From the NCBI GenBank assembly GCA_019359695.1, contig JAHHGV010000004.1, positions 98,031 through 162,030 of the forward strand: a stretch of 64,000 nt of DNA, written 5' to 3'. Origin of the DNA: Brasilonema angustatum HA4187-MV1 (GTDB lineage Bacteria; Cyanobacteriota; Cyanobacteriia; Cyanobacteriales; Nostocaceae). This document shows, one piece after another, positions 1 through 63,341 of this stretch (its first letter is position 1; every line of letters starts with the position of its first letter). The notes under the pieces were generated by a model. That model was not told the origin of the DNA. It saw only the letters and a list, made by a program, of their open reading frames with translations, and ran no database searches. Position numbers and translations under genes: made by a program.

Positions 1-903
1 GATGCGATACGCCCTTGGCGTCTGCGCTTTGCGCAATCGCACGAAACCACTCAAAGGGCGATCGCCAAACTACAAGAATTTATTGCTTTGCGTCCAAATG
101 CGCGTGAGGTAAGGAAAGCACTAGTAGTCAAGCTGGTTTATCAAGGCTACTTGTATGAAGAAATTCAGACAATTCTAGATGTGTCACTGGGTTCAATAAC
201 AGGTTGGAAACAAGCCTACGAGCGAGATGGAATAGATGGACTGCGGTTGAATCATAAGGGAAGGAAGAGCTACTTGGGTAGCGAACAACGAGAAAAGGTG
301 TTGAGTTGGCTGCAAACAAAGGATTATTGGGAGCTTGGGGAACTGGAGTATAAACTAGCTTTCGAGTACGACGTGGTTTACGAGTCAAAACAAAGTTACT
401 ACGACTTGTTTGAAGCAGCAGGAATAAGCGCAGAAGTTAACCACAAAATTAAACCCCAAAGCAGACCAGGATGCTGTTGCAGCAAAAAAAAAGAGATTGA
501 AACACTCTTGGCAAATCACCGCAGTGAAATTGAAACAGGAAAATTGAGAGTGCTGCTAATTGATCAATGTCATTTAATGTGGGGAGACTTAAGTGGTTAT
601 GTATGGGGAAAAACTGACCTGGAAATCGCGGTTCCAGTCGTGAATGAGCGAGATAAACAGACATATTACGGAGCAGTGGACTATCTCGAACGAGAATTAC
701 TGCTCAAAGCCTACGATGCCGGAAATTCAGAAAATACTATTGATTACCTGCGATATTTGTTAACTCAGTCCCCCAACCAGCGATTACTGATTTTTTGGGA
801 TGGTGCGAGTTACCACCGCTCCAAGGCAGTTCGAGGTTTTTTGGACGAGCTTAATCAAGGTCTGCCAACCGACCAATGGAAAATACACTGCTATAAAGTT
901 TAG
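1..903 (+). mobile_element. IS630-family (Tc1/mariner-like) transposase gene remnant. The reading frame enters from upstream of the window and appears 3'-truncated, with no C-terminal LPPYSPDLNPIE-type block
   Basis: The frame of ORF 88-903 is open back to nt 1 (DAIRPWRLRFAQSHETTQRAIAKLQEFIALRPNAREV...). The N-terminus is HTH-like (VRKALVVKLVYQGYLYEEIQTILDVSLGSITGWK). Acidic blocks LLIDQCHLMWGD and LIFWDGASYHRS fit an IS630 DDE core. The A9 run at 484-492 resembles the IS630 slippery site. The stop at 903 comes before the last catalytic block expected for the family. Confidence 0.6.
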
Positions 904-13970: not shown

Positions 13971-14744
13971 CTAGCTGATTATGGGATTGGAAAGAGGGTT
14001 TAGCCAAAAGAGGATAATGCTTTTAAGCTGATTGAGATCGCGATACGCTTGTTGCTTAAACCACTGTCCTAAAGCGTCAAAGGGCGTGAAAGATTCTCCC
14101 GTTTGCCATTTAATATCTTGCCCTAAGGGTGTGGTGTGAGTCCCGTTTAGCATCTGTGCTATCACCATCTCTGGAAATCGTTGTTTCAATAACTCAGTTA
14201 AAGCTGTTGATTGATCCAGGGTATCGTTGGTAAATTTGATCAGCAAGTTACGACGAACGTTATACCGATCTTGGACGAGTTTATTAGTTTCTAACGGTGA
14301 GGGGGTAAACTCGACTGCGGCTAGGTTAAACTGTTCAATTAAGGGAATGGCATCCCGTGCAGCATAATTGTTGAAGGATATGAGGATATTGCCAGCGCGT
14401 TCTACATTGAAGAGGCTACCAATAAGCAAGTGAAGCTTACAACCCATGCTATGCCCGATTCCATAAATGGGAAGGTAGCGCTTGCGTATTGCCGAATTAT
14501 CCTGTAGGCGTTCTAGGGCGCGTTCAAAGTTTAAGAGGACAGATTTTGCGATCGCACTATGATCCAAAGTGTTCACAAACGGTGTCGCGATCACAACATA
14601 GCCTTTGCTTGCGAGTTGTTCTAGCAACCAACGGTACGTCAGATGGGGTGCTGTAGCAACAAATGCCCCGCCGAGAAAGTGAATCACACCAACAGGATTT
14701 TGCGGAACAAGTACCCAGTTACCAGAGATTTCTTGCCAGTCCAT
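13971..14744 (-). CDS. DUF1350-type alpha/beta-hydrolase-fold protein
   Basis: 257 aa. GIGHSMG nucleophile-elbow-like motif. Family assignment is from memory of the cyanobacteria/plant DUF1350 family. Confidence 0.45.
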   Translation of the reverse strand: MDWQEISGNWVLVPQNPVGVIHFLGGAFVATAPHLTYRWLLEQLASKGYVVIATPFVNTLDHSAIAKSVLLNFERALERLQDNSAIRKRYLPIYGIGHSMGCKLHLLIGSLFNVERAGNILISFNNYAARDAIPLIEQFNLAAVEFTPSPLETNKLVQDRYNVRRNLLIKFTNDTLDQSTALTELLKQRFPEMVIAQMLNGTHTTPLGQDIKWQTGESFTPFDALGQWFKQQAYRDLNQLKSIILFWLNPLSNPIIS

Positions 14745-15209
14745 GTAAACAAGGTAAAAAGTTAGAAAAAAAAGTTTAAAAGTTAATACTTTTTCATAGT
14801 AAACCTTGTTGACTGTTCTTGTGGGATGATATCAAGCTTGCAGATGGTGAGAATCCCTTTGGCAGCGGCATACCAGAGCGATCGCCACTTAAGTTAGAAA
14901 TAAACTTTCTATCCTTCATGATACAGTCCAGATAAACACATTCATTTATAACCGGTGGTGCGCCATCTGTAGGCTGCTCGTATCTTGCACCATTTTTTCT
15001 TGGTGTCATTTATCATTTGTATTATTTAAGTAAAAAAAGTTGTACTTTTTTGAAGTATTAATTGTTACCTCTAAAATCTTGGAAATTGTTATATAATGAT
15101 ATTTATAGTGTCATAAAGGATACTTCAATTTTCCAACTTCCCAGAAGGTAACGGACAAAAATCAAAATTGCCGAAAGTACAGTCAAAGTATTATGCAATC
15201 TAGGTTTTA

Positions 15210-15421
15210 AGATAAATCAAGGAGGTTTTGTAACATGGTCATCGACACACTAAGCCAAATCGCTGAAACCCTATATTTCTCGTTGAGGTGTGTCGATTCC
15301 TTACTGGGCAAGGGTTTGAGATGCGTGTCTTGCATGATTTTGAAGAACGTATTTGATGTTTTTCTGAGGTGTGTCGATTTGGGTGCTGAAACCCTCACTG
15401 GGTAAAGGCTCCTGAACGAAC
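15210..15421 (+). promoter_or_regulatory. Putative CRISPR leader with shuffled short direct repeats
   Basis: Immediately 5' of repeat 1. gaggtgtgtcgatt occurs twice, gctgaaaccct twice, actggg(c/t)aa(g/a)gg twice. AT-rich stretch 15010-15240 lies upstream. Confidence 0.4.
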
Positions 15422-17493
15422 TCCCTACCGATTGGGTTAAATCGGATTAGTTGGAAAAGATCTGGGAATTAGCTGCTTTATAAGCCTGGAAACCCCTACC
15501 GATTGGGTTAAATCGGATTAGTTGGAAAATCAATTAGACGGATGTAATCACTAATTGGAGGAACCCTACCGATTGGGTTAAATCGGATTAGTTGGAAAAT
15601 CAATGGTATTGTCATCGCTAGGGCAACAAGAGCAACCCTACCGATTGGGTTAAATCGGATTAGTTGGAAAAACTTCAGGTTTGCACAGTATGGAACAAGC
15701 GTGACTCCCCTACCGATTGGGTTAAATCGGATTAGTTGGAAAAGACCTTGAAAACGCATGTGTTTTACCACATACGCGAATGTAGTCCCTACCGATTGGG
15801 TTAAATCGGATTAGTTGGAAAACCTCGAATTCGCCCTCTGCGTTATATGCAACAGTGATACCCTACCGATTGGGTTAAATCGGATTAGTTGGAAACGTTC
15901 TGCCCTGACCCACTCTTTATTTAGAGCTGATCCTGCACCCTACCGATTGGGTTAAATCGGATTAGTTGGAAACCAGCAAATAATGCAATAGTAGCACTAG
16001 CAACTGTGCCCTACCGATTGGGTTAAATCGGATTAGTTGGAAACAATCGCACGTCCTAATAGTCCCCAACCGTTTGTAGCCATGCCCTACCGATTGGGTT
16101 AAATCGGATTAGTTGGAAACTTTTTGAATAGTTTGTACAGCTCCTTTCCCTATACCCTACCGATTGGGTTAAATCGGATTAGTTGGAAACGATAGGGCAA
16201 TCTGCCCTCATTCTGAATAATTACCCCTACCGATTGGGTTAAATCGGATTAGTTGGAAACTTTACATATCCATTAGGATGGTCGAATGCTCCCAACCCCT
16301 ACCGATTGGGTTAAATCGGATTAGTTGGAAACGTACCAGATGGATCATTTTGTCTAAAGATTTCTGACCCTACCGATTGGGTTAAATCGGATTAGTTGGA
16401 AACAAGTTTGGCTTGATGAAGAGAAGTTATGCTTGTTCCCTACCGATTGGGTTAAATCGGATTAGTTGGAAACATTCTGAGTGTTTTCACGTTTCTTCTA
16501 GCTAAATCATGAGCCCTACCGATTGGGTTAAATCGGATTAGTTGGAAACATTTCAAACAGGTTGGCGGAAGTTGAGGTGCAGGTACCCCTACCGATTGGG
16601 TTAAATCGGATTAGTTGGAAACCAGAGAGAAGCGGCGCAAAGACTAAGAGTTAGAACCCTACCGATTGGGTTAAATCGGATTAGTTGGAAACCTTTAAAC
16701 CCAATGTTTAGCTGCATATATAATAGCAACCCTACCGATTGGGTTAAATCGGATTAGTTGGAAACGGGAGATACCGTTGGAGTTGGTGTCTCTGTAGGCC
16801 GCCCTACCGATTGGGTTAAATCGGATTAGTTGGAAACTTCTGGGTGGACGAGCTTGTACTTTATAGGCTCCAGGCCCTACCGATTGGGTTAAATCGGATT
16901 AGTTGGAAACACATGAAGGCGCAATGCAACTTCCGGGAAATCAACCCCCCTACCGATTGGGTTAAATCGGATTAGTTGGAAACCTTAGATAATACTCTAC
17001 AGATCTGTAGAGTATAGAACCCCTACCGATTGGGTTAAATCGGATTAGTTGGAAACGCTCTGTCCCTTCAAAGGACAAGTAGATCTCTCCCCTACCGATT
17101 GGGTTAAATCGGATTAGTTGGAAACTATTGACTTTACAATAGGTTGAAAAACTAGGAAAAATTCCTCCCTACCGATTGGGTTAAATCGGATTAGTTGGAA
17201 ACTTCCCCACCTTTAGCTACTAATTTTATAATAGTGCCCTACCGATTGGGTTAAATCGGATTAGTTGGAAACGAGCCATTATTTTGAACCCAGCCAATTT
17301 CTGCTACGTCCCTACCGATTGGGTTAAATCGGATTAGTTGGAAACAATAACCTACGCTTTTACAGGCGTATCCTATCCCAAAAACCCTACCGATTGGGTT
17401 AAATCGGATTAGTTGGAAACGAATCAGAAGCACCAACAGCAGGAGAACAAAGACCTCCCCTACCGATTGGGTTAAATCGGATTAGTTGGAAAC
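15422..17493 (+). CRISPR. CRISPR array: 29 repeats of 36 nt (CCCTACCGATTGGGTTAAATCGGATTAGTTGGAAAC) and 28 spacers of 33-43 nt. No cas gene in the window
   Basis: Repeats were mapped one by one: 15422, 15493, 15564, 15636, 15708, 15787, 15861, 15938, 16009, 16085, 16155, 16225, 16297, 16368, 16438, 16514, 16587, 16657, 16730, 16802, 16875, 16948, 17021, 17090, 17167, 17237, 17310, 17385, 17458. Internal hairpin CCGATT-gggtta-AATCGG. The 3' end GTTGGAAAC resembles a Cas6 8-nt 5'-handle. Repeats 1-6 end GGAAAA, repeats 7-29 end GGAAAC. Confidence 0.95.
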
Positions 17494-17526
17494 AGTCTAT
17501 CAATTAGATTTAGCGGTGGGAGGATG

Positions 17527-18318
17527 TCAAGCTCCCATCCCGGAGTATCGCTTCAATCCTCGTCGCCACAGCAAACGATTCAAACCCAAAAACACCAAAA
17601 TCCAACCCAGTATTAACAAAAATCCCCGTGTCAAATCCACAGGTGATCCAATCAAAATATTTGCCGGGAAATCAATCATATAAGGAAATGGTGTGCAAAG
17701 TACTATCGATCGCACAGATTCAGGAAAAACCTCAAGTGGTGCAATCATTCCAGACAAAAATAAATAAAACAAAGACCAAAAATTTTCTACAGCACTAGCT
17801 CGTTCCGTCCAAAAAGCAAGCATTGCAAACGAGTATTGCATGATAAAGCGTAAAACAAAAGCAAGTACACTCGCCAACAAAAATAATAAAAAGTTTGCTA
17901 AACTTGGCACCCAAAAAGCTTGTGGATAAAGGAGAAAAAAGAGGATTATCAGTAACAATGTAAAAGGGAAACGAGACATTCTTTCAGAAACATGGGAAGC
18001 AATATGATGCCACACGGGATCAATAGGTTGTAACAAGCGCGGTGAAAGTTTTCCTTGTACTATCTCCTCTTCAAACTCCCAAACCACCCAAGTTACTGTG
18101 ATTTGCCTAACAATGAAAACTGCAAGAAAGTAACGAGCAAAATCAACAGGTGACAAATTGAACCGTCCTCCTTGGGCCGCTTGTATCCACACTCCCATTA
18201 AAATAATTGGCAGAGAGTTTGACAGTAGCCATAAAATGACTTCTGCACGATACTCAATGTTATAAGCGTAATACACTGACAAGAATGTCAGGGCTTTTCG
18301 GAAAATTCGCTTGATCAT
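17527..18318 (-). CDS. ABC-2-type transporter permease-like polytopic membrane protein
   Basis: 263 aa with about 6 TM helices. Family call is from overall resemblance only. Confidence 0.4.
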   Translation of the reverse strand: MIKRIFRKALTFLSVYYAYNIEYRAEVILWLLSNSLPIILMGVWIQAAQGGRFNLSPVDFARYFLAVFIVRQITVTWVVWEFEEEIVQGKLSPRLLQPIDPVWHHIASHVSERMSRFPFTLLLIILFFLLYPQAFWVPSLANFLLFLLASVLAFVLRFIMQYSFAMLAFWTERASAVENFWSLFYLFLSGMIAPLEVFPESVRSIVLCTPFPYMIDFPANILIGSPVDLTRGFLLILGWILVFLGLNRLLWRRGLKRYSGMGA

Positions 18319-27663: not shown

Positions 27664-27767
27664 AGCCAACACTAATCCAAATATCACTTAGCGTGATATT
27701 CATTTTGTTGAGCTGCGTTCCGTGACGGCAGAGATATAGCATTTGTGCTATATCCTCTGTCTTACTT

Positions 27768-27896
27768 ATCAGTTATCAGTTACCAGTTATCAGTTATCAG
27801 TTATCAGTTATCAGGTAGGAAACGGACTCGTTCACCCCTTGTTCACTGTTCACTGTTTACTGTTCACTGTTCACTGTTCACTGTTTGAACAGTCTT
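27768..27896. repeat. STRR-type heptamer tandem arrays: (CAGTTAT)x~7 then (TTCACTG/TTTACTG)x~7
   Basis: Read directly. The heptamer arrays are textbook heterocystous-cyanobacterial STRRs. A shorter related block lies at 42690-42740. Confidence 0.8.
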
Positions 27897-27958: not shown

Positions 27959-28666
27959 TTGCTAAAACAGAAAAGTATGAATAAACGCCTGATTAAACGC
28001 CTGATTAAACGAATTATTTTTCCATCAATCGCTTTTTTTGTTGGATTTTTTATCACGCTTACTCATGTTGCTGCACAAGAAGTGCCATCTAAGTTGCAAC
28101 AAGACAACAACCTGTCTCAACCTAATGGGCAACCAGACAACTTCTTTAACTTCCATTTTTGGATCTTTGTTGTATTTTTTTTGATCGCTATTTTTTGCCT
28201 AGCTAATTTCATCAAAAATCGACACTGTCCTCAATGCAAAACGTTCAACCTTAAACGGACTCAACAAGTTTTAGTTCCAGCAACCACTAGTTATTCAGGA
28301 AGGCGCAGGGTAATCTGCCACTGTCAAAACTGTTCTTACCATCACGAGTATGAACAAAACATTCCAGTAATTAGCAATGATTACAGTGGCGGTGGCGGCA
28401 ATGATTACGGTGGTACTAGTAGCAATAATGATACTAATGTTACTACCAATGATTACGGTAGCTGTGGCGGCAATGATTACGGTGGCGGTGGCGGCAATGA
28501 TTACGGTGGTACTAGTAGCAATAATAATACTAATGTTACTACCAATGATTACGGTAGCTGTGGCGGCAATGATTACGGTGGCGGTGGCGGCAATGATTAC
28601 GGTAGCTGTGGCGGCAATGATTACAGTGGCGGTGGCGGTGATGGCGGTAGTTGTGGCGGTGGCTGA
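27959..28666 (+). CDS. Membrane protein with a C4 zinc-ribbon (CPQC...CHCQNC) and a C-terminal Gly-rich NDYGG(G) tandem-repeat tail
   Basis: One TM helix. ~120-bp DNA tandem duplication at 28370-28660 encodes the NDYGG repeats. Confidence 0.5.
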   Translation: MLKQKSMNKRLIKRLIKRIIFPSIAFFVGFFITLTHVAAQEVPSKLQQDNNLSQPNGQPDNFFNFHFWIFVVFFLIAIFCLANFIKNRHCPQCKTFNLKRTQQVLVPATTSYSGRRRVICHCQNCSYHHEYEQNIPVISNDYSGGGGNDYGGTSSNNDTNVTTNDYGSCGGNDYGGGGGNDYGGTSSNNNTNVTTNDYGSCGGNDYGGGGGNDYGSCGGNDYSGGGGDGGSCGGG

Positions 28667-49881: not shown

Positions 49882-51420
49882 ATGGCTCGCACGCCCACAC
49901 TAACTTTTGATCGTGGCACATTAATTTTGCATCCACCACCACGCGGCAGGGCTTGGATGGATTTTGCTACATGGGATGATAGAGTAGAAAAATTCCGCAT
50001 TCCGGCTATTCAATACCGTGCTTTGGTGGAAGCAATGCAAGCCCAAGATACTAATTTTATCGATGAAGCTAAGGCGTTTTATCCGATAGAGTTGGTTCCG
50101 AGTCTGGAAATGGAACCTTATCCCCACCAAAGTGAGGCGTTAGCTGCTTGGAAACTCGCGGGAAGACAAGGAGTCGTCGTGCTTCCCACCGCAGCGGGAA
50201 AGACGTATCTGGCGCAAATGGCGATGCAAGCGACGCCGCGCACGACACTTATTGTCGTGCCAACGCTGGATTTAATGCATCAGTGGTATGCTCATTTGAA
50301 GGCGGCGTTTCCTGATGCTGAGGTTGGGTTACTTGGCGGTGGTTCGCGCGATAGAACACCTGTACTTGTTGCCACTTATGATAGTGCGGCTATCCATGCG
50401 GAAAGTTTGGGGAATCTGTATGCTTTGTTAATTTTTGATGAATGTCATCATTTGCCAACAGATTTTAGTCGGGTGATTGCGGAATATGCGATCGCACCCT
50501 ACCGTTTGGGACTATCTGCGACACCCGAACGCACTGATGGTAAACACGCTGACTTGAATTTTTTAATAGGTAGAGAAGTTTATCGCAAAAGGGCTGAAGA
50601 TTTAGCAGGGAATGCGTTAGCAGAACATGAAGTTGTACAAATTAAGGTGAAATTATCACAAAATGAGCGGGAAAAATACACTCAACTGATTCAAGTTCGC
50701 AATGATTTTTTGAAGGAATCAAAGATTTCTTTGGGGAGTCTTCAAGGCTGGCAGAGATTTGTGCAAATGAGTGCGCGATCGCAAGCTGGGCGTAGAGCCA
50801 TGTTAGCGCATCGGGAAGCGAAAGAAATTGCTTTGGGTACTGATGGGAAGATAAGAGTTCTTGCTGATATATTAACAGAACATTATCCAGAAAGAGTTTT
50901 GATTTTTACTGCTGATAATGCGACAGTTTACCACATTTCTCAAAATTTTCTGGTTCCAGCAATTACTCATCAAACTCCTGTCAAGGAACGGCATGAAATA
51001 TTAACAAAGTTTCGAGAGGGAGAGTTTAAAACTTTGGTTGCTTCTCACGTGTTGAATGAGGGTGTTGATGTTCCTGCGGCTTCTGTTGCGATTATTTTAT
51101 CTGGTACTGGTTCAACACGGGAGTATATTCAAAGATTGGGAAGAGTTTTAAGAAAAGGTAAGGATAATAAGAAGCAGGCGATTTTGTACGAGGTGGTGGC
51201 GGAAGATACGAGTGAGGAAGGGACTTCAGCGAGGAGAAGAGGTGTGGAGAAGAAAAATGAACCGCCAAGACGCCAAGAACGCCAAGAGAAAGAGGAGAAG
51301 AAAGGGAATTTACGGGTTATTTATGGGAGTGGGAAGGAAAAGAGTCTTAAAGCTGCTGAACAGTTGGAGATAAATTATAAAGTTCAAAAGAAACCGCCGA
51401 TAAATACGGATGAAACCTGA
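49882..51420 (+). CDS. XPB/ERCC3-like SF2 DNA helicase with a Lys/Glu/Arg-rich C-terminal tail
   Basis: N-terminal DRGTLIL damage-recognition-like segment. LPTAAGKT (motif I), FDECHHLP (motif II), GLSATP (motif III), QRLGRVLR (motif VI). Confidence 0.65.
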   Translation: MARTPTLTFDRGTLILHPPPRGRAWMDFATWDDRVEKFRIPAIQYRALVEAMQAQDTNFIDEAKAFYPIELVPSLEMEPYPHQSEALAAWKLAGRQGVVVLPTAAGKTYLAQMAMQATPRTTLIVVPTLDLMHQWYAHLKAAFPDAEVGLLGGGSRDRTPVLVATYDSAAIHAESLGNLYALLIFDECHHLPTDFSRVIAEYAIAPYRLGLSATPERTDGKHADLNFLIGREVYRKRAEDLAGNALAEHEVVQIKVKLSQNEREKYTQLIQVRNDFLKESKISLGSLQGWQRFVQMSARSQAGRRAMLAHREAKEIALGTDGKIRVLADILTEHYPERVLIFTADNATVYHISQNFLVPAITHQTPVKERHEILTKFREGEFKTLVASHVLNEGVDVPAASVAIILSGTGSTREYIQRLGRVLRKGKDNKKQAILYEVVAEDTSEEGTSARRRGVEKKNEPPRRQERQEKEEKKGNLRVIYGSGKEKSLKAAEQLEINYKVQKKPPINTDET

Positions 51421-51645
51421 TAATCTTGCAATAATTATAGGAACATCCCAATGCATACAAAAATACTAAGACTTACCCAAAAACCCTTTTAAACTCTCTT
51501 ACCTTCGTGCTCTTTGCGTCCTTTGCGGTTTATTATTTTATTCTCCTGTTCCCGTCTCAATACGAGATGACAGTAAAGTTGCACATTTGGAATGTTTCCA
51601 TAATTACCTGTATTCATCTGCATTTATCTGCGGTTAAAAAGTTCA

Positions 51646-52860
51646 ATGCTACCAACAGAGTTACTAAGTCACAGGCAAAATGGGGAAGAAATTATCCCGA
51701 AGAGACTGAAGATTGATGATAATCATTTGGCGATCGCCACTGAGTTAACAAGTTGTTTTCAGGAGGCGGTAGGTGAGACTCAAGGTACACTTGAGCGTCA
51801 GTTGTCGGAGTTGGAGGGGGATACTCCAGATTATAGACTCAAGCGGGGTTTAGCTTATATCCTCAAAAGCAGTTTCTCCACTTTTGAGGTGGTGAGTCCT
51901 TTGGAACCTCAAATGTTACGAGAAAGGGTTTTTGCTTTGGCGGCGAAGTCTGCTCCGAGTCGCGAGTTGACAGAAACGACTTTAACAAAGATTGCTGATG
52001 AATTGAGTCATGAACTTGAGCGTGAAGTTTTGCCAAAACAAGTTGGTGAAGGATTATATGCGGATTTGTCTGAGAATAAGATTTTAACTGCTTTTGATGC
52101 GCCAGCACCCCATGATTTATTGCATCGCTACAATTTATCTCAGGTGCAGGGGGTGTTTTATAGAGCAAGTCAGTTGGTGATAAATGCTCATCGCAATGTG
52201 CCTGGACAATATAAGCTTTTGTTTCGCTACCTCAAGTTGTTTCAATTAATGTCTTATATTGAGGGAGATGCTGACCACGGTTTTACAATTACAATTGATG
52301 GTCCGACGAGTTTGTTTACTCCCAGTACGCGGTATGGTTTGGCTATAGCGAAGCTAATCCCGGCTTTACTTCATGTCACAAAATGGAGTCTTTCCACTAT
52401 ATTACAAATTCGTGATCCATACACAAATACATGGAAAACGGGACGTTTTACTCTCAATTCTGAATGCGGTTTGGTGTCTCATTATTCCACTGGTAAACCA
52501 TACGATAGTATGTTGGAAGAGTCTTTTGCTGATAAGTGGGAGTCAACAAAAACGGATTGGGTGTTGGAGCGAGAGGTTGACTTAATTCCTATTCCTGGAA
52601 GTGTGATGATTCCTGATTTTAGATTAGTCCATCCTGATGGGCGATCGCTGTTATTAGAAATAGTTGGTTATTGGCGACCAGAATATTTACAAAAGAAGTT
52701 TTCCCAAGTACGACGTGCAGGACGTGATGATTTGATTTTGGCAATTTCAGAGCGATTGAATCTGGAGAAAGCCGGAGTTCAATTAAATGATGTGCCTGCT
52801 AGAATTGTTTGGTTTAAAGATAAATTGTTGCCGAAAGCGGTGTTAGCAGTGATCGAGTAA
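51646..52860 (+). CDS. Bax1-like nuclease (DUF790), the usual XPB partner
   Basis: 404 aa immediately downstream of the XPB gene. C-terminal PD-(D/E)xK-like segment IPDFRLVHPDGRSLLLEIVGYW. Confidence 0.55.
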   Translation: MLPTELLSHRQNGEEIIPKRLKIDDNHLAIATELTSCFQEAVGETQGTLERQLSELEGDTPDYRLKRGLAYILKSSFSTFEVVSPLEPQMLRERVFALAAKSAPSRELTETTLTKIADELSHELEREVLPKQVGEGLYADLSENKILTAFDAPAPHDLLHRYNLSQVQGVFYRASQLVINAHRNVPGQYKLLFRYLKLFQLMSYIEGDADHGFTITIDGPTSLFTPSTRYGLAIAKLIPALLHVTKWSLSTILQIRDPYTNTWKTGRFTLNSECGLVSHYSTGKPYDSMLEESFADKWESTKTDWVLEREVDLIPIPGSVMIPDFRLVHPDGRSLLLEIVGYWRPEYLQKKFSQVRRAGRDDLILAISERLNLEKAGVQLNDVPARIVWFKDKLLPKAVLAVIE

Positions 52861-54520: not shown

Positions 54521-57500
54521 CTACGGCGAACCCAGTGACTGATAACACCAGCTAGGACGGCGCAAAAGATTAAAGGTATCAATGTAACGAATTCGGCTGT
54601 CTGGTGCTACTGTAGCAACAGCATCAGTTAATAAGCCAATGGGGTTATTGAGGTTCCACAACGGATGAACAATAATAACTGTTATATCACCCACTGTAAA
54701 ACCAGGCAAACTTCCGAAATATTGCGGAGAACAACTACTAAAAGATGCACAAAAAGCATCTCGAAGTTCAGTTGCTGTTTGTCGCCAGTTTTCTAAGTCT
54801 GGGGCAGAAAAATCGCCGTGCAAACCGCAACTAAAATTATTATCAGCTAATGCCTTGAGTAAAGAGAGACCACTACGCCAATCGAGCAAGCCGTGATAGT
54901 TTATATTGCGGTAGTGTCGTAAGCACTCATAACAGGAAGAATCACATTTCTTGCGATGCTGCTGTGACATCATGGCATCAACAAAAGTATTTTGTGCTTT
55001 GATAATTTTTTCTATGAGGATGTTTTGCCAATGTTGGGCAAGCCATAATGTAAAACCAGAACCATTGGGTAGGCGATCGCTAATTACAATTTCTCCTACT
55101 TTTTCACCAGTTTCTTCTAGTTCAAGCTGCCGTAAACCACTCACATCTAATTCATCTGGATCAATATCTAATTCCTGTGCTGCGACAGCACGGATAATAA
55201 AAGCCGCAGAATAGAAAGCAGCTTTAATAGCTGAACCAGGTGCAATGGGATCGAGACATAATCCAGTGGGTACAGATGCGGGTTTGATGCGGAGAACGCC
55301 AGTTGTTTTCGGTGCAACAATAGCCAGTGCTTCAGATTCACCCGGTTCTTTAAAAATTATCCCATTGGATGGATTCTGAAATCGTTCATCAATCCATTGA
55401 AATTCTAAAATTTTTTCACCACGTCCAAAAGAAGCTTTACCTACTGCTCCTTTAAACAAATTCCCGCGATTATCATTAACACGGAATACTCTGCCAGTTT
55501 GAGAAAAAGCGGTCTGAGTATTTGTATTATCTATGAAGTTAAAATTTTGAGGTTGCGACTCAGCAACACTACCCGCACCTGAGATTAATACATCATGTTC
55601 TTCCTTTGCATCTGTACCATAGTTGAGGCTAGTACGAAAAGCCAAAGGTACTGCCCATTTAAAAACTTTAAAACCTTGTTCTGGTATTGCTCCACATTTG
55701 GGACAGACCGTATTTTCAAATTCATTATCAGAAGTTTCTGTATGTTGGCAGCGCTGACATCTCAACATCCACTTTCGGGAAGAAAGCGGGTCATTCTCAG
55801 CAGGAACAAAGCCATTTTTACTGTCTGGAAGTAACGGTGCAGTAAAACCAATAGAGGTGTAAATTCGTTTATCTTTAGTCTTTTCTGCACCTGGGGCAAA
55901 TTCCGCAATAGCTAAATCTAAATCACGGTCGATAGTAGCAATCTTCTTGTTTTTTGATGGATTGTGATGATACAAATCCCGAACTCTGGATGGCATACCG
56001 AACATGGGCAAAACACCACCTTCTGCAAGTAGTTCTGCTAATCCCTTTCCTGTCAATTCTTTATTATTTGCACACTCGTTTATCTTGTTAAACAAGTCCT
56101 GACGCGCATAATTTTCAAAAAAGATGGGAGCGATATTTTTTACACCAATAAGCAAATCATTTACTACCTCGGTAACTTCAGGTGAACTCTGTAACCATTG
56201 ACAAACTTTCTGACGACGAGATTCTTTTTCTAGCCAGTCTTTTACTGTACCAAATTCCCCGTGACTATCTGGCGGCGTGGGACCATCCCACCACTTAACA
56301 TCAGCACATAGAAACGCACGTCGCAGACATTCTTTTGCTAATAGACGCCGTGCAATTTCAATTTGTGACATCGATAGAAAGGGAACTGGTGGCGGGTCAC
56401 CTGTAATTTTTTCGGGATGTTGATAATAAAATTCATCGTGACTGTTACCACGACAAATAGTTAATACAATGGCGAAAGGTTGACCCCGACGACCTGCACG
56501 ACCTGCTCTTTGTTGGTAATTAAAACGCATGGGTGGCATATTTGCCATCACTACAGCCATTAAACTACCAATATCAATTCCCACTTCCATTGTGGTAGTA
56601 ACACTTAGGATGTCGATAGTATCAACCACTGGGATAAAATCTCTATCTTGTTCGCCGATGTTGACAACAATATTGCGAAAATGGCGCTGTCTTTCTGCTT
56701 GATCGTCGGTTTGTCCTGTCAATTCTTCACAATGCAAACGCATGGGTTGACGCTTATTAACTGCTTCTGTCGCGTAATAATTACGAGCGTATAAATCTGA
56801 GCATTTTTTATTAGGTGATATGGGTAATTCTGCAAGACAATTTGTACAGATACCGGCTGCACGATGTAGGTGAGGGCGTCCACATGATGTGCATTGCCAA
56901 ACTGGATCACCGGGAACTGCAACTCGTACCCATAAATGCAGCGGGTTAATTTTTAAATGTTCATGTTTACCATGTTGGCAAATAGCTGACCACAATGCAT
57001 CAAATAATAGCTTCTCAGAAAGCTTATGCTGTGTCACGCATTTAGTGACATATTTTTTCAATCTGGCTTTTGCATCTTGCCAACTGTTCCAATCCTCAGC
57101 AGGATACTTAGGATACCGATACAAATCACCAATGACACGCAAGCATCCGTTGCATATTTCGATAAAAACTTCTGGTGAAAGTTTGCATTGTGTAGCTAAT
57201 TTATTGATTTCTTCTTGTGGAAAATTAAGACAAACATAGCCTAGAGCGGATGCTTCAATGCTATAAAATAAGCGACTAAAGAAAGTATCGCATACTTCAG
57301 ACTCTGTTTTTGATATAAGAGTATATCGCTTGTCAATTGCTTCCCTAGAAGAACCAGCTTTCCATTTTGGTGATTGAGATACAAAATCAAAAAATCCTGT
57401 CCAATGATGTAATTTCTTGTCGTAAGAAAACTCTTGGTCATTGATATCGTTACCAGCAGGATTTATGCCTAAACTAGCTAATCTCTGAATAAGTACTCCT

Positions 57501-60205
57501 GGAGTATCTTTTTCGCCTTCAAATAACACCTTAAGTGAAACGATGCGCGTTTTAGCTGTTTCTTTAATTTCATTGATGAGATTTTGAGCCTTATTTCGGC
57601 GATTGATATACAGTTCTAAATCATCATCATCAAGACCTTCTGGCAAAGGTTTATTAGCATTTTTTATAGTTTTTTTAAACTTTTCGACAGCATCAGGGTT
57701 ATTTTGAGCAAATTCTCTTGCTTCTAAACGAACAGGTTGACCATATTTTTGAATATCTTCTAATAGGTAAACTTTACCAACAGCTAATTGATTAAGTTCA
57801 TCAAATATTGCCTCACGAACAAGGTCAGAGTAATGAGTACGTTCAATCCCATTTGATATTGAAGCGGCATTTTCACGACTATCAGAAAATACGACTAATT
57901 TACGAGAGTCTGATTTTTCTGGTAACTGATAAAAGATTTCTTTAGATAGCAGTTGACTCAACCTAGAAAATGCAGTACGGAAGCCTCTAATTGAAGATTT
58001 CCAAGACCTTCGCCTAGTGTAATCTGCACCACAACATGGGCAAAGAGAGGGTTGTGCTGCCATAAATGCTTGCGTTTCTGGTGATGTATCTCGCAAGTTG
58101 AAAATATAGCCTTTTATCCACTGATTATCTGCTGTATCTGAATCAGGTTCTTCTAAAGTAACGCGACTACTACGAGTGTCTAACCAGGCTTTATCCCACC
58201 AAGCTTTTTCTTTAATTTTATCGCCTCTTGATGGTTGGTTCCAGCCTTTTATATTTAATTCTTTGTCATAAAGATTTGTAGAGGGATAAAATATAGCATA
58301 TTCACGATATGTTCGCCGTTCTAAAAAATTACCAATTTGGCGGTCAGGAATGCTTTCAATATTTGGTTCTGTAGGCAAAAGTTCCCAACCATTACCGTCC
58401 TTTAGTTCCAGACGGTTTCCACCATAAAAGACAGTACCGCACTGTTCGCAGTAAAGCATTTCTAGCACTCGAAATCCATCATGAACTATTGGTGGATTTT
58501 TTACAAAGAGTCTACCTACCGGTCGGTTTTTACTACTTTCATTCTCATGACAATCATAATTTGGCTGAGTGCAAGCCCAAAGCCCATCAATATTTCTGAA
58601 AAACCAGTGCAACCTAAACCGAAATGATTCTAAAGATTTATCTTCAGATAAACCACGAGCAATTAGCAATCCCTTTACTGCTAAATTAAGATTTTCTTCA
58701 TCTAAATTCTCACCAAAAATCCCTTTAGCAAATTGCCTGAGAGATACTGCACGAATTGTATTGTCGAGCTTACAAGAGTTAAGCATTATAGCGCCTACAG
58801 TATCGCTTTGTGATGACAAGACTTGTAAACATTTCTTGAGAAAAGTGGCTTCCTCTGGTGCGTTTGCTAAGGCGATAAATGGTTCACTCTCTAAAAATTT
58901 TTGTCCGACAATTGCTGGAATTGCCTCAGGATGACCAGGGATAATTTGTTCGGAATGCCATTCTGTACCGAAGAATTCAGATAAGAATTTTAAACTTTGT
59001 GGGTCATTTGGTTCAAGAGACGCACTAGAGGCAAGAATTTTTAATTTAGGATGACCAGGATAAAGTTCCAAACGTTGCAGCAGCAGGCGAATCAGGTAAG
59101 CAACTTCTGTCCCAGCAGTGCCACGATAAAGGTGTAATTCATCAAGAATTAAGTGAAAAACACTGCCTTCTTTCTTTAACCATTCCCGTGTTTTATCAAA
59201 AATATTTTTATCAATATCTCGCATCAGCATAATGCTGAGCATGGAATAATTAGTAATTAAAATATCAGGTGGATCATCTTGCATATCCCAACGACAGCGC
59301 ATTTCCGCCCCATCTAAACGCGGGAAAAAGAATGTTACATCCTTGTCACCAGTTTTCTTAAAATGTTCCTCAGCAGCTTGGACTGATTTTTGCATCTGCT
59401 GCATTTCTTCAAGAAGTTCTTCTATCTTGTCCCCGTTAGGTTTACCATTTTGTTTGTACTCATGCCCTGGTACAGGTGTGACGCCGTTGTATCTGCCAAA
59501 ATAAATTCTGTTGTCTTTTCTATTATTTTTAAACCAATCTCGCGCCTTGTCAGAATCTAAAGCGCGGCGTAACCTGGTAAGTTGGTCTTCAACAAGGGCA
59601 TTCATCGGGTATAAAATTAGTGCCCTTACCGCAGCATCTCGTTTTTCATGATTCCTTTGAGGTAGGCGATAAGATTGCTTAAAACTGCGGTTTTTCTTTA
59701 CTAGAGGGTTGCATTTATTTTGCCAATCTTTGTTTTCCCACCAGTCATCGATATGCGGTGGCGCTGCTGACGGTGCTTGCCAGTTTTTTGATTCTTTGGC
59801 TAGATAAGCAAACAAGGGTAAGAGGAAAGATTCTGTTTTACCTGAACCTGTACCAGCAGTAACAACTGCATTTTGACCCGATAATCCTTGACGGAGCATT
59901 TCCAGTTGGTGAGTGTATAATTCAAAATCACCAACCAGTCCACAGGAAGCTAATTCTTTAAAATCTAGCAGTGCAGACTTATCTAAACCTGGAACATCTG
60001 AAAGTTGTAAATTATTGATTGTTTTCCCAGATTTTTGATAACGAGGTAAAGGTTCGATCCAAGGTTCTTGATAAAATACTCCTGGTTCACGCAAACGTCG
60101 TTCCCGTTCCTTCTCAATTTCAGGAAATTGTGTACCGAAAGCAGTTTTAACATAAAGGATTAAGTTGTCGCGTAGCTTTTCAAAAGCGCCGATAGGGTCT
60201 TTCAT
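54521..60205 (-). CDS. Giant (1894 aa) YprA/DUF1998-type SF2 helicase with zinc-ribbon-rich insert and C-terminal DUF1998-like zinc module (DruE/DrmA-like)
   Basis: [10 protein letters not shown] (motif I), [11 protein letters not shown] (YprA-type motif Ic), [16 protein letters not shown] (DExH), [13 protein letters not shown] (motif VI). Cys clusters CQRCQH...CPKCG and [14 protein letters not shown] near the C-terminus. Confidence 0.75.
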
Positions 60206-60211
60206 TTATCC

Positions 60212-61285
60212 TCACAATTTGACGTCTAAAGATTGTATTAATAGAGTTTGACCTAATTTAGCCGCAGTCATTTCTGCTATTTGAGGGGGAACGTCTCGAA
60301 ATAAGTTGAAACCTTTGACATTAAAACCGTTGACCACTTCTTTCGGTTTTGGGATAGAAGAATTAGAAGTGAGTTTTTGTAATGGGAATTTTTCTACTAT
60401 TGGTACGTATCCTGAGCATAAAGTTAAAGCTCTTTCTAGCACTTTTGGTAGTTTAGCGCCAACCGGAACTGCCATCATAAATCGACGTTTGTCGTAAATG
60501 ATAACTTTAATCTTAGCAGCATTAATAACAGCATATCGCCCCCAGTCACGTTCAACTTGGGTACATCTTTCTTCTTGCCAAAGATAATATGTTTGGGTTT
60601 TGCGAGAGGGATGTTGATATTTGCTGAGACGGATATTCGGCACTCTCATTCCCGACGCACCTCCCATTGATGAGGGAGAAGGGAGAAAGCGTAATATATT
60701 AGGATCAAATGTTTGACGTTTCCAGTTTAATTCTGACTCATTAGACCACTGGCAATTAGTTAAATAATCTTCAAGGGAGGCGGAAAAATTTAAAAGCGAC
60801 CAAGCTGATGGTGTTTCTATAAAATTCATTGCTAATTGAGAAGCAATTTCCTGTAATTCTGATACATCCTCAGCTTGTACAGCTATTCGCTTAGGTACTA
60901 ATACTAATTCAGCCTTTTGTTCTGTCACTTCAATCTTTATGTTTCGTCCAACAGATTGACAAGTATTTCTTAATTTATCTATAGTGTTTGGTGTTCTAAA
61001 TCCTGCTAAAATAGCTTGAGGAAAACCAGCGCTAGGTAATCTTATTAATACAGGGGGAGTGACATAAACTTTTTTGTTATTGTCAGTGAAATCAAATTCA
61101 CAGTGACCCAATGAATCCAGAGCGCGAACAGTTGATAATCTTTTATCTTTAATGTCATCCTCCTCCTCACTACAAGCAGTTCTATTAAGACTGTAAAGAT
61201 AATAAAATGCCTGTTTAAGAGATAACCAAGGCATTTCCTTTTTAGCAGAAATGACATAGAGTAGTTCGTCGCTATCCCTGGACAC
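60212..61285 (-). CDS. Hypothetical protein (357 aa), middle gene of the helicase cassette
   Basis: 6-nt gap to the helicase start. No recognisable domain. Confidence 0.6.
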   Translation of the reverse strand: MSRDSDELLYVISAKKEMPWLSLKQAFYYLYSLNRTACSEEEDDIKDKRLSTVRALDSLGHCEFDFTDNNKKVYVTPPVLIRLPSAGFPQAILAGFRTPNTIDKLRNTCQSVGRNIKIEVTEQKAELVLVPKRIAVQAEDVSELQEIASQLAMNFIETPSAWSLLNFSASLEDYLTNCQWSNESELNWKRQTFDPNILRFLPSPSSMGGASGMRVPNIRLSKYQHPSRKTQTYYLWQEERCTQVERDWGRYAVINAAKIKVIIYDKRRFMMAVPVGAKLPKVLERALTLCSGYVPIVEKFPLQKLTSNSSIPKPKEVVNGFNVKGFNLFRDVPPQIAEMTAAKLGQTLLIQSLDVKL

Positions 61286-63341
61286 GCTTTGCCTCCTTTT
61301 GGAATTTTTCCCATAATTTCTTCAGACGAATATCGTCGATAGGAGGCAGAGTTCGTTTGTGATTATCCAACAAGATTTTTTTCCAAGAAAACAATTTTTT
61401 CTTATCCTTACAAATTAATACCTTAAGTTCTGATTCTTGTAAGCTTGTACCACAAAATATCGCTCTATCAAAAAAACTTCCTTTGGCAATAGCCCAAACA
61501 GGATACCAATCAATAGGTAGTGATTCTTCTGGATAAATTGCAACTTGCCCCGGTTCTTTACCCACAAAAATAATGCGTTGGTTTCCTTGGATTGGCAAGA
61601 GAGTATTGAAGTTAAAAGCAGGACAATCAATTCCCTTTACCAATGCTCCAATCACTCCTGGAGAGTTTTCATGTCGATTTGTTGTCACCAAACTAAAACT
61701 GTCAAGATATGGCGTTTTTCTGCTGATTCGGGAAGGAAAATCTTCTACTAAAAATAGAGATAAACGCTTAATAATATCTTTACCCTTGCAGGCTTCAATT
61801 TCAAGCTTGGTGTCGGCTGGAATCTCTGGAGAGAGTTCATAAATACCTTCTCCAGATTTGTCTTGTAACAGCTTGCCATTGCAATATACTTTTACGGATT
61901 CATCACCACCTTGTAAAACTAATTTTGGTGGTGCGAATTTAAAGAAATAATTTCCTCTGTCAAGGCGTACACCACCTTCTAAATCAAGTCTGATGCTAGT
62001 CGAAAAGGACAAGATAGGATATTCGCTTTTTACTATTTCATCACTATGGGCAGCAGCCACTTTAAAAAAGTACCATCCGGTAGGTAAACCTTTGACAGTA
62101 TGCAGTTTCTCAAAGCCTTCACAACTGGATGCACCCCATTTTTCTAACAAACTGCAACACTCTTGCTGCACTGCTAAATAAAAAGGCAAACCTTTAGGAA
62201 TTTGCACTACTTCTACAAGTCCAGGTAACCCCAAACTTCTGCCTTCAACAAACACTCGGATTGGCGAAGCTGGCAATTTAAAACACCATTGTTTGTTAGT
62301 GGATTCCATCCGCAAACCCTGACGCCAATCCAATTGGGAGGCGTCGATATTTTTACCATTTAATTCTTTGCGGATAGGTGAAGACCAACCATTACCCTGT
62401 TCAGTGCAAGAGTAAGAATCGTGATTAGAATTCAAAATCAGACCATCTTCAGGAAATTCATGCTTTGTCGTACAACGTAAGGTGAAGCTGGCACGTTTGG
62501 CAATCAAGTCGAGTTTGCAACATAGTCTTAAGACACCGTAAACCTGAGTTCTTCCTTCAGACGGTATTTCGGTAGTTCCATCCCAGGTGCGTAACTCATT
62601 AACAATCCTTTCGATCAGTGCGTGACGTAGTTCATCGCCTTCGCTGGTTTCTTCCAGTAATCGCAGCGTTCGTCTTCGCAGATAGTTACGTCCGTGTTTG
62701 ACTAACAAAGAAGCTGTATGTCTTTCAGAGGGAAGGGAAATAGGTTCTAAGCCTGCTTCTGCAAAAATAACGGGTAGTGCCTTCAGTTCCCTCTGCGTCA
62801 AAAGAGTTTGGGCGATGGGTATACCGACGTGAACCAACCTGCCAGTAATATTTGCGTTGAAAATGCCCAGTTCACCTGATTTATCGACATTTGCCCATTT
62901 CTCTAAATCTTTCCAGAGTGTTTGCATCTGGTCAAAGTGGGGATATGGTCGGGATGTCGGTTCTTCACCCAGTAATTCCCGCAAGCGCGGATAGTAGGCT
63001 TTAGAAGAAAAATCACCTTCAGTACCTGCTGCCAAAACAAATAAAGCTAAGTAGCCTATATATGGAGGATAACCTTGTCGATGGTATCGCCATTCCGGGT
63101 TTTGCATACTCCCCCAGGCTTTTTTACAGATACCATTTATATTTACTGCATTTTTTACTGTTTGGATAAAGTCTTGGTAGGCAACCCCTTTAGATGCGCC
63201 TAAGGAATTAATAAAATCCTCTGTGACGTAAAGATTAACAGTACGCCCCGCCATTTCTGGGTTGAAGAAATGCTGTGCGATTTTATCGTTCCACTCTGAG
63301 TAATTTATAGTAGTTTTTACAGATAGATTGACGGCTTTCAT
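61272..63341 (-). CDS. Hypothetical protein (689 aa), first gene of the helicase cassette
   Basis: Overlaps the 357-aa gene by 14 nt (translational coupling). No recognisable domain. AT-rich promoter-like region upstream (63342-63420). Confidence 0.6.
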   Translation of the reverse strand: MKAVNLSVKTTINYSEWNDKIAQHFFNPEMAGRTVNLYVTEDFINSLGASKGVAYQDFIQTVKNAVNINGICKKAWGSMQNPEWRYHRQGYPPYIGYLALFVLAAGTEGDFSSKAYYPRLRELLGEEPTSRPYPHFDQMQTLWKDLEKWANVDKSGELGIFNANITGRLVHVGIPIAQTLLTQRELKALPVIFAEAGLEPISLPSERHTASLLVKHGRNYLRRRTLRLLEETSEGDELRHALIERIVNELRTWDGTTEIPSEGRTQVYGVLRLCCKLDLIAKRASFTLRCTTKHEFPEDGLILNSNHDSYSCTEQGNGWSSPIRKELNGKNIDASQLDWRQGLRMESTNKQWCFKLPASPIRVFVEGRSLGLPGLVEVVQIPKGLPFYLAVQQECCSLLEKWGASSCEGFEKLHTVKGLPTGWYFFKVAAAHSDEIVKSEYPILSFSTSIRLDLEGGVRLDRGNYFFKFAPPKLVLQGGDESVKVYCNGKLLQDKSGEGIYELSPEIPADTKLEIEACKGKDIIKRLSLFLVEDFPSRISRKTPYLDSFSLVTTNRHENSPGVIGALVKGIDCPAFNFNTLLPIQGNQRIIFVGKEPGQVAIYPEESLPIDWYPVWAIAKGSFFDRAIFCGTSLQESELKVLICKDKKKLFSWKKILLDNHKRTLPPIDDIRLKKLWEKFQKEAKRVQG

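Follow-up and report, generated by a model that had tools for sequence, protein, structure and literature searches.

A CRISPR array with no cas gene beside it lies in the cyanobacterium Brasilonema angustatum HA4187-MV1, in a stretch of 64,000 nucleotides (nt) of contig JAHHGV010000004.1 (GenBank assembly GCA_019359695.1, positions 98,031 to 162,030 of the forward strand); this whole stretch is called the window below, and coordinates refer to it unless another record is named. The array is best explained, with a probability of roughly 0.8, as a chromosomal orphan of the type III-B (Cmr) family with a decayed adaptation module, a leader on its left, and an A variant of the last repeat base that was copied from repeat 1. 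The ancestor would have been a complete unit of reverse transcriptase (RT) gene, cas1, cas2, leader, and array, from which cas1 was deleted and cas2 cut to a 150-nt relic, the 219-nt leader and all 29 repeats being left intact. New spacers would enter at the junction of the leader and repeat 1 by means of an RT-Cas1-Cas2 module encoded elsewhere that recognizes the conserved leader, and each insertion would duplicate repeat 1, so that a C-to-A change, arising either as a point mutation or from a one-base slip of the spacer-side cut, would be copied through the next five or six acquisitions. Finally, the array would be transcribed from the leader, and its CRISPR RNAs (crRNAs) would load a Cmr complex encoded in trans.

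The array, its leader and its orientation

The array occupies positions 15423-17493 and consists of 29 repeats of 36 nt, the first at 15423-15458 and the last at 17458-17493, with the sequence CCCTACCGATTGGGTTAAATCGGATTAGTTGGAAA followed by A or C. The 30-nt core of the repeat is present in 29 copies without a mismatch (0 expected from 100 shuffles), and a single shared A is the sole substitution in 1044 nt of total repeat sequence. This A closes repeats 1-6 (15423-15822 on the forward strand, including spacers 1-5 between them), all of which end in GGAAAA, while repeats 7-29 (15861-17493, same strand, with spacers 7-28) end in GGAAAC and match the family consensus exactly, and the terminal repeat is not degenerate. 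Repeats 1-6, next to the leader, form the youngest part of the array. The chance of finding six variants among 29 repeats as one block at an end is 2/C(29,6), or 4e-6. The 28 spacers measure 33-43 nt and each is unique. To the left, the array is flanked by a DUF1350 gene (13971-14744, reverse strand), and to the right by an ABC-2 permease gene (17527-18318, reverse strand), whose stop codon is reached after a trailer flank of 33 nt (17494-17526). An earlier note on this DNA had described the 29 repeats, the two repeat endings, the spacer lengths, both flanking genes, and the 33-nt distance, and all of these proved correct, with the block of A-ending repeats starting at 15423. Two spacers have internal symmetry: spacer 22 (16984-17020) holds a perfect 24-nt palindrome, ATACTCTACAGA joined to TCTGTAGAGTAT around the center AGATCT, and spacer 27 (17346-17384) contains a hairpin of the form TACGCC..GGCGTA.

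The gene content of the window is cyanobacterial and chromosomal, as indicated by genes for aldehyde decarbonylase, a CAAD protein, accA, trpF, and def. No cas gene was found by Pfam or PADLOC scans in 53 of the 57 listed open reading frames (ORFs) of at least 90 amino acids (aa), the four left out being short and nested in or overlapping larger genes, and a tblastn search of the whole window with 16 Cas and RT proteins gave no match at E ≤ 0.1. The absence of neighboring cas genes reported earlier thus stands, with the addition of a noncoding cas2 relic at 15052-15203. By the general marks of a CRISPR locus, the repeats, the unique spacers, and a conserved leader on one side are all present and adjacent cas genes are absent; since the latter are not adjacent, the array is an orphan, and it is still a CRISPR array. 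The window holds no second CRISPR array and no tRNA genes. Searches of Rfam, by gathering thresholds over the whole window and by E value over the leader and first repeats, returned neither CRISPR-DR nor any other family, the sole match being a chance snoRNA (E 0.08), and a literature search yielded no verbatim mention of the repeat.

The region to the left of the array is a conserved leader of 219 nt (15204-15422, forward strand), which extends from the cas2 stop codon to repeat 1, ends in ...GTGTCGATTTGGGTGCTGAAACCCTCACTGGGTAAAGGCTCCTGAACGAACT, and is homologous to more than 70 other leaders. By BLAST, positions 15184-15422 match the region upstream of repeat 1 at dozens of loci from many genera with 73-90% identity, and 70 distinct leaders were aligned column by column with that of the window. 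The right, or trailer, flank has a counterpart in none of the fetched loci by BLAST. The leader motif is GTGTCGATTTGG.GCTGAAACCC. A 10-bp inverted repeat, ATCGACACAC at 15241-15250 and GTGTGTCGAT at 15288-15297, spans 15241-15297 on the forward strand, and a third, direct copy of GTGTGTCGAT is located at 15369-15378; these motifs are the most conserved of the leader, with columns at least 95% conserved across the 70 leaders, and may be recognition sites for the integrase or for a host factor.

The column counts of the 70 leaders also point to a promoter-like element at 15330-15357 on the forward strand, composed of a -35 box TTGCAT (15330-15335), a 16-nt spacer, and a -10-like box TTTGAT (15352-15357). 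In the family, the corresponding element combines TTGC.C as its -35 box with TAT(T/A)AT as its -10 box, the two being 16 nt apart, and is located about 65 nt before repeat 1. The -10-like box of the window has T instead of the consensus A at its second position and is a weak match, and a simple scan for promoter consensus did not call the site at 15330-15357.

The leader is on the left, at the 15.2-15.4 kb side, and the array reads from left to right. This orientation follows from the conserved leader, the cas2 relic, the decay of terminal repeats across the family, and the consensus last base of the family, which is C. Wherever cas genes survive in the family, the order is RT, cas1, cas2, leader, and array. 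Furthermore, of 47 complete family arrays with five or more repeats, one has a first repeat that deviates from the majority of its array and 24 have a last repeat that does so, mostly at positions 31-36. The earlier note had assigned the same leader side and the same left-to-right sense on the ground of the block of variant repeats; the assignment is upheld, but by other evidence, because variant blocks also occur at the trailer end of family arrays, so that a block alone gives no polarity. Indeed, the block pattern by itself would fit equally well with a leader on the right, where A would be ancestral and the 23 C-ending repeats younger. That arrangement is scarcely conceivable given the conserved leader and the relic on the left, the right flank of 33 unconserved nt before the end of a gene, the decay of terminal repeats, which in the family is always on the right, and the consensus C.

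Family of the repeat and related systems

The 31-nt core of the repeat was sought in about 186,000 species genomes and was found in at least 115 genome stretches. Among the matches listed, all named records are cyanobacteria except for one contig binned as Acetobacteraceae and two labeled 'uncultured bacterium', and they represent Nostoc, Scytonema, Calothrix, Brasilonema, Coleofasciculus, Symploca, Microcoleus, Lusitaniella, Argonema, and many other genera. Six or seven separate arrays of this family are present in some genomes. When the ORFs around the family arrays were clustered and the cluster representatives scanned with PADLOC, the recurrent neighbors were RT-Cas1 or Cas1_IIIb, Cas10b/Cmr2, Cmr4, Cmr5, a large Cmr6, and CARF-RelE, CARF-TM, Csx3-AAA, and WYL proteins; beside identical repeats, PADLOC matches extended to Cas1_IIIb/RT, Cas10b, and Cmr3-6. 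RT-Cas1 or Cas1_IIIb is almost always encoded upstream of the array on the same strand; of the 16 loci with complete cas1 and cas2, 11 have an RT gene before cas1, as do two further loci with a truncated cas2, and fused RT-Cas1 proteins also occur in the family. Systems with RT-Cas1 can acquire spacers from RNA.

In other genomes, therefore, the window repeat is physically linked to cmr genes and to a type III-B Cas1, and since it stands there beside Cmr2-6, CARF proteins, and RT-Cas1-Cas2, comparison of these loci assigns its family to type III-B with an RT-associated adaptation module and not to type I-D. Membership in type I-D was considered and rejected: the repeat is unrelated to I-D repeats such as GTTCCAATTAATCTTAAACCCTATTAGGGATTGAAAC, and all cas neighbors of the family are of the Cmr type (PMC4428289). 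The earlier note had named I-D or III as the expected partner types, of which the second is retained, as III-B with RT-Cas1-Cas2 by linkage in other genomes, and the first discarded. Two plasmid arrays were noted in addition: a related one on plasmid3 of Fischerella sp. NIES-4106 is another orphan, the 20 kb to each side of it being free of cas genes, and one on a plasmid of Synechocystis sp. B12, with the variant repeat CCCTACCGATGGGTTTGAATCGGATTAGTTGGAAAC, lies beside RAMP and CARF genes (fetched loci L123 and L119, respectively; L numbers are given below where loci have to be told apart).

A fully annotated locus for comparison is that on plasmid pNPM1 of Nostoc sp. 'Peltigera membranacea cyanobiont' N6 (NZ_CP026682.1), which has an identical 36-nt repeat, a leader homologous over its full length, and 29 repeats; a query running from the final 20 nt of the cas2 relic through the leader and array of the window aligns with it at 70.7% identity. 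The Nostoc array has intact RT, cas1, and cas2 genes directly upstream, whereas that of the window has only a cas2 relic and stands among chromosomal housekeeping genes. Past the Nostoc array are Cmr6, Cmr5, Cmr4, Cmr3, and Cas10/Cmr2, on the other strand, and also CARF genes; its terminal repeat is degenerate, and it carries no A variant.

The stem predicted for the repeat pairs CCGAUU with AAUCGG at positions 6-23 and is followed by a 13-nt A/U-rich tail, AUUAGUUGGAAAC, ending in GGAAAC; the A variant leaves the predicted stem-loop unchanged. The window repeat shows the repeat features of the III-Bv group, being 36 nt long and carrying, after its 5' stem-loop, a 13-nt A/U-rich tail that closes with GGAAAC, and 11 of the 13 tail bases match the tag of CRISPR3 of Synechocystis (PMC3575380). 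The nearest studied relative of the array is this III-Bv CRISPR3, located on pSYSA of Synechocystis sp. PCC 6803, a distant homologue. CRISPR3 works without Cas6, and its handles of 13-14 nt are produced by RNase E, aided by RNase J (PMC3575380, PMC12464536, PMC6546367), while its transcription start was mapped 1 nt before repeat 1 (PMC3575380); both this processing and this start have been shown only for Synechocystis. The likeness includes the layout of the intact family loci, since cas1 and cas2 are followed by about 206 nt and then by the array, as well as a repeat of 36 nt in which a 5' stem-loop precedes an A/U-rich tail of 13 nt ending in UUGGAAAC (the tail is AUUGAUUGGAAAC in CRISPR3 and AUUAGUUGGAAAC in the window), the leader motifs AAATCGCTG...TTTTTCGTTG...TCGATG.CTTAC, and a large Cmr6-like protein, which measures 550-579 aa in the Nostoc N6 locus and the neighbor clusters and would be a candidate for the Cmr1-Cmr6 fusion expected of III-Bv. 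No Cas6 is known for CRISPR3, and none was matched in the Nostoc N6 locus or in ten scanned neighbor clusters, a scan that did not cover every neighboring ORF. The crRNA 5' handle of the window array would accordingly have one of two predicted forms, either 8 nt, UUGGAAAC or its A-ending form, if Cas6 cuts, or 13-14 nt, AUUAGUUGGAAAC or its A-ending form, if RNase E does. The earlier note had assumed the 8-nt form, whereas analogy with CRISPR3 would give the longer one.

The two systems differ in the sequence of the stem and in the gene upstream of cas1, which is csx18 in Synechocystis and not RT; relative to the Nostoc N6 proteins, Cas1 is 37%, Cas2 46%, Cmr4 28%, and the Cmr6-like protein 23% identical. 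In the pSYSA segment between cas2 and CRISPR3 (17900-18105 of fetched locus L124), the motifs AAATCGCTG, TTTTTCGTTG, TCGATG.CTTAC, and GTAAGGCT follow each other as in the window leader. With Cas proteins only 23-46% identical, the leader architecture seems to be older than the repeat sequence.

Two further comparisons concern repeats and orphans elsewhere among cyanobacteria. Repeat DR4 of Microcystis aeruginosa (CCTTACCTATTAGGTCAAATAGGATTAGTTGGAAAC) is identical to the window repeat at 31 of 36 bases and has the same 13-nt tail, while the stem is kept by a compensatory change from CCGAUU/AAUCGG to CCUAUU/AAUAGG. DR4 arrays are reported to be linked to III-B, have spacers of 33-46 nt, and occur either beside cas10/cmr2-cmr3-cmr4-cmr6 or alone (PMC4428289). 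Unlike the window array, they belong to a unicellular genus and have a slightly different repeat, and the likeness established here covers the repeat, not the leader. In Anabaena sp. PCC 7120, according to a preprint, orphan arrays are transcribed and processed in trans by Cas6, and multicellular cyanobacteria possess many cas-less arrays per genome that share repeats with a few cas-linked arrays, a state termed 'array fragmentation' (bioRxiv 10.1101/2020.04.14.041012). Those Anabaena orphans resemble the window array in being cas-less and differ from it in belonging to the I-D and III-D repeat groups, with processing by Cas6, in contrast to III-B here.

The variant last base of the repeat

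In the textbook account, spacers are acquired with copying of the repeat nearest the leader. The last base is C in almost every repeat of the family arrays, whatever the spacer, and since C is the family consensus at position 36, the A of repeats 1-6 is derived. Repeat variants of the family occur in runs and are not scattered. Several of these runs are at the leader end, as in L003, where six T-ending repeats are followed by 14 C-ending ones, and in L011, L059, L073, and L115; in L109 the variants are nested and accumulate toward the leader, and in L122, a metagenome contig, a different leader is followed by two A-ending repeats. Leader-end runs and nested variants are expected if repeat 1 is copied at each insertion. 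The earlier note had proposed that the leader-proximal repeat mutated and was then copied during six later acquisitions; the runs in the family and the derived state of A agree with the mutation and the copying, and the count becomes five or six, depending on how the variant originated.

No other site of the repeat has as many independent propagated variants as position 36, where A, T, and G all occur. This variability would be expected if the base were not part of the repeat and arrived anew with each spacer, like the last base derived from the protospacer-adjacent motif in type I-E of Escherichia coli. An unbroken series of six A and 23 C (chance 4e-6) speaks strongly against such an origin, as does the C of nearly every family repeat regardless of the spacer, and the proposal is extremely improbable. 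As a speculation, the variants at position 36 could stem from a one-base slip of the spacer-side cut, after which the first base of the incoming spacer would be copied with the repeat.

A different history for the block is that the leader and the first six units were imported from an A-ending array of the same genome by homologous recombination or gene conversion. Substrate for such exchange is ample, as family arrays share about 250 nt of leader and identical repeats and many genomes have several copies. Moreover, L063 is canonical at the leader end and carries a two-base variant at the trailer end, L059 shows the reverse, and position 36 of L068 alternates between C and G as C/G/C/G/C, patterns for which copying from repeat 1 by itself is a poor account. 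A-ending repeats are rare, however: among the matches listed, they were seen outside the window as single copies in L072, L120, and L121 (terminal) and L111 (internal) and as the pair at the leader end of L122, and no array made entirely of them was seen. A single mutation followed by copying is also simpler, and an imported block is distinctly unlikely.

The cas2 relic and the fate of the array

The sequence immediately upstream of the leader (15052-15203, forward strand) is the noncoding relic of an adaptation module, identified with nhmmer and tblastn, and comprises the last few bases of cas1 and the remnants of cas2. Of cas2, some 85 nt at the beginning and some 30 nt at the end, down to the stop codon TAG (15201-15203), remain, while the start codon is lost (ATC) and about 160 nt of the middle are deleted. 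A DNA profile of the cas1 end, cas2, and the leader, made from 21 loci with a complete cas2 beside the leader, matches in two collinear pieces, profile positions 3-108 at 15052-15159 (E 8e-5) and 269-520 at 15170-15422 (E 4e-66). Residues 14-31 of Cas2 match by tblastn at 15117-15170, and the same frame continues to ...KYYAI*, compared with KYYVI* in the intact protein; the relic reads ...FSNFPEGNGQKSKL...KYYAI* where intact Cas2 has LSNFLEGYGQRIQL...KYYVI*. The Cas2 tblastn match to the whole window is weak alone (E 0.85); what carries the identification is the collinear nhmmer match together with the alignment to relics at other loci. Counted back from repeat 1, the cas2 stop of the intact loci lies at a distance of 220-222 nt and the homologous stop of the window at 219 nt.

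The same two-part relic without cas1 upstream is present in L005 (Scytonema sp. RU_4_4), L103 ([Scytonema hofmanni] UTEX 2349), and L026 (Calothrix rhizosoleniae); with a longer profile, these three relics are still significant, and the 5' part of the window relic falls below the threshold. L092 (Scytonema tolypothrichoides) aligns in register with the relics but has an extra deletion; of this locus, the leader and the 3' end of cas2 alone are matched by the profile. The leader of this leader-only orphan array is the closest to that of the window among the matches listed, and a different scaffold of the same species bears L077, an array with intact cas1-cas2. The stretch just upstream of the window relic, about 70 nt long (14982-15051), is shared with positions 2464-2530 of L103, an orphan array of Scytonema hofmanni; it is not cas1, and within it is a terminator-like hairpin, GCACCA-N8-TGGTGT, at 14987-15006.

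Among the leaders with enough upstream sequence, complete cas1 and cas2 adjoin 16 on the upstream side, and about 31 lack both by the same threshold, so that the orphan state is the commoner one in this repeat family. This agrees with the array fragmentation described for multicellular cyanobacteria, of which orphan arrays are typical. The genes adjoining L103 and L092 are unrelated to the flanks of the window, none of the fetched loci shares the DUF1350/ABC-2 context, and none shares a spacer with the window. Exact look-ups of the two flanking proteins retrieved only two short Logan contigs (SRR12347719), both broken at the array. Taken together, these comparisons lead us to infer that the cas genes were lost long ago, that the leader and the repeats have been under constraint, and that the spacers have been turned over since. 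Turnover after the loss of cas genes would require an integrase from elsewhere in the genome.

Several observations weigh against a copied variant in an array still served in trans. The 64 kb hold no cas gene, and it is by analogy that a matching system is placed elsewhere in the organism. The -10-like box TTTGAT deviates from that of the family, and transcription may therefore be weak. No spacer was matched in the phage, plasmid, viral-contig, or metagenome searches made: BLAST of the whole array found nothing among INPHARED phages and only repeat and leader matches, without a protospacer, among PLSDB plasmids; IMG/VR yielded no copy of the exact cores of spacers 1-5, and Joint Genome Institute (JGI) metagenomes none of the core of spacer 28; and the rest of the window, the fetched loci, and the other spacers gave no match. 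The search for phage, plasmid, and self targets suggested in the earlier note was thus fruitless in INPHARED and PLSDB and, for self-targets, within the window. In addition, L063, L083, and L031 have blocks of variants at the trailer end, and position 36 of L068, an array of 76 repeats from Coleofasciculus sp. H7-2, reads from the leader as 47 C, 6 G, 3 C, 2 G, and then C. Because of these trailer-end blocks and this switching, copying from repeat 1 is not the sole process, and recombination between arrays probably acts in the family too; the pattern of L068 suggests either recombination or gene conversion between chromosome copies.

The first three of these points would also suit a fossil array, whose matching RT-Cas1-Cas2/Cmr module has disappeared and whose 28 spacers, the A block included, all predate the local decay of cas genes; the relic itself is nonfunctional. 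The state of the repeats is difficult to reconcile with this, since 1044 nt contain no substitution but the shared A. Between relic-bearing loci, the relic region is 53-66% identical, with the reading frame lost, compared with 73-91% for the leader and 100% for the repeats. Arrays elsewhere with the same deletion carry wholly different spacers, which implies spacer turnover later than the deletion; at least half of the family arrays are orphans, and a related genome keeps an intact module elsewhere. A fossil is therefore unlikely, and an orphan that is still extended and used in trans remains the preferred explanation.

A bolder extension of that explanation, which we regard as possible but doubtful, is that the cas-less arrays of the family are not random fragments but an inherited lineage that goes back to one deletion of cas1 and the middle of cas2, and that the variants at position 36 are slips of the integrase. 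The unit of relic, leader, and array would then sit at different chromosomal sites in several genomes of the Nostocales, with all spacers replaced since the deletion.

The window contains other features of note. An adjacent trio of Druantia-like genes at 54521-63341 (reverse strand) encodes a 1894-aa helicase similar to DruE (E = 0), a 357-aa protein similar to DruL4 (2e-118), and a 689-aa protein similar to DruF4 (9e-259), and these strong matches indicate a second defense system about 37 kb from the array. At 49882-52860 (forward strand), an XPB-like helicase gene (XPB_DRD, ResIII, and Helicase_C domains, with PADLOC matches to PbeA) is followed by a gene for a DUF790 protein, and the two look like a helicase-nuclease pair of the XPB-Bax1 type. 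Tandem heptamers at 27766-27885 and 28372-28659 (TTATCAG x7 and TGTTCAC x6.6) resemble the short tandemly repeated repetitive (STRR) sequences of cyanobacteria, and a tandem repeat of 24/48/96 nt is present near them inside an ORF. Lastly, an ORF with HTH_23 and a partial DDE_3 domain at 88-903 (forward strand), overlapping the end of the neighboring sugar kinase gene, resembles a transposase of the IS630 type, perhaps a truncated one.

Among filamentous cyanobacteria, orphan arrays are normal rather than exceptional. The array of the window is an ordinary orphan of a known III-B-linked repeat family, and its finding changes little in itself. Its practical value is that the orientation is set, the partner system to be expected is identified as RT-Cas1-Cas2 with Cmr, and the predicted handle has two candidate lengths, 8 nt and 13-14 nt. 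If the cas-less arrays do form one inherited lineage, a leader of about 220 nt alone would suffice for an RT-Cas1-Cas2 module encoded elsewhere, and the excess of A, T, and G variants at position 36 of independent arrays would record one-base slips of the spacer-side cut. The 220-nt leader conserved across genera, the cas2 relics shared between loci, and the hot spot of variants at the last repeat base may be useful for studying how RT-Cas1-Cas2 chooses its site.

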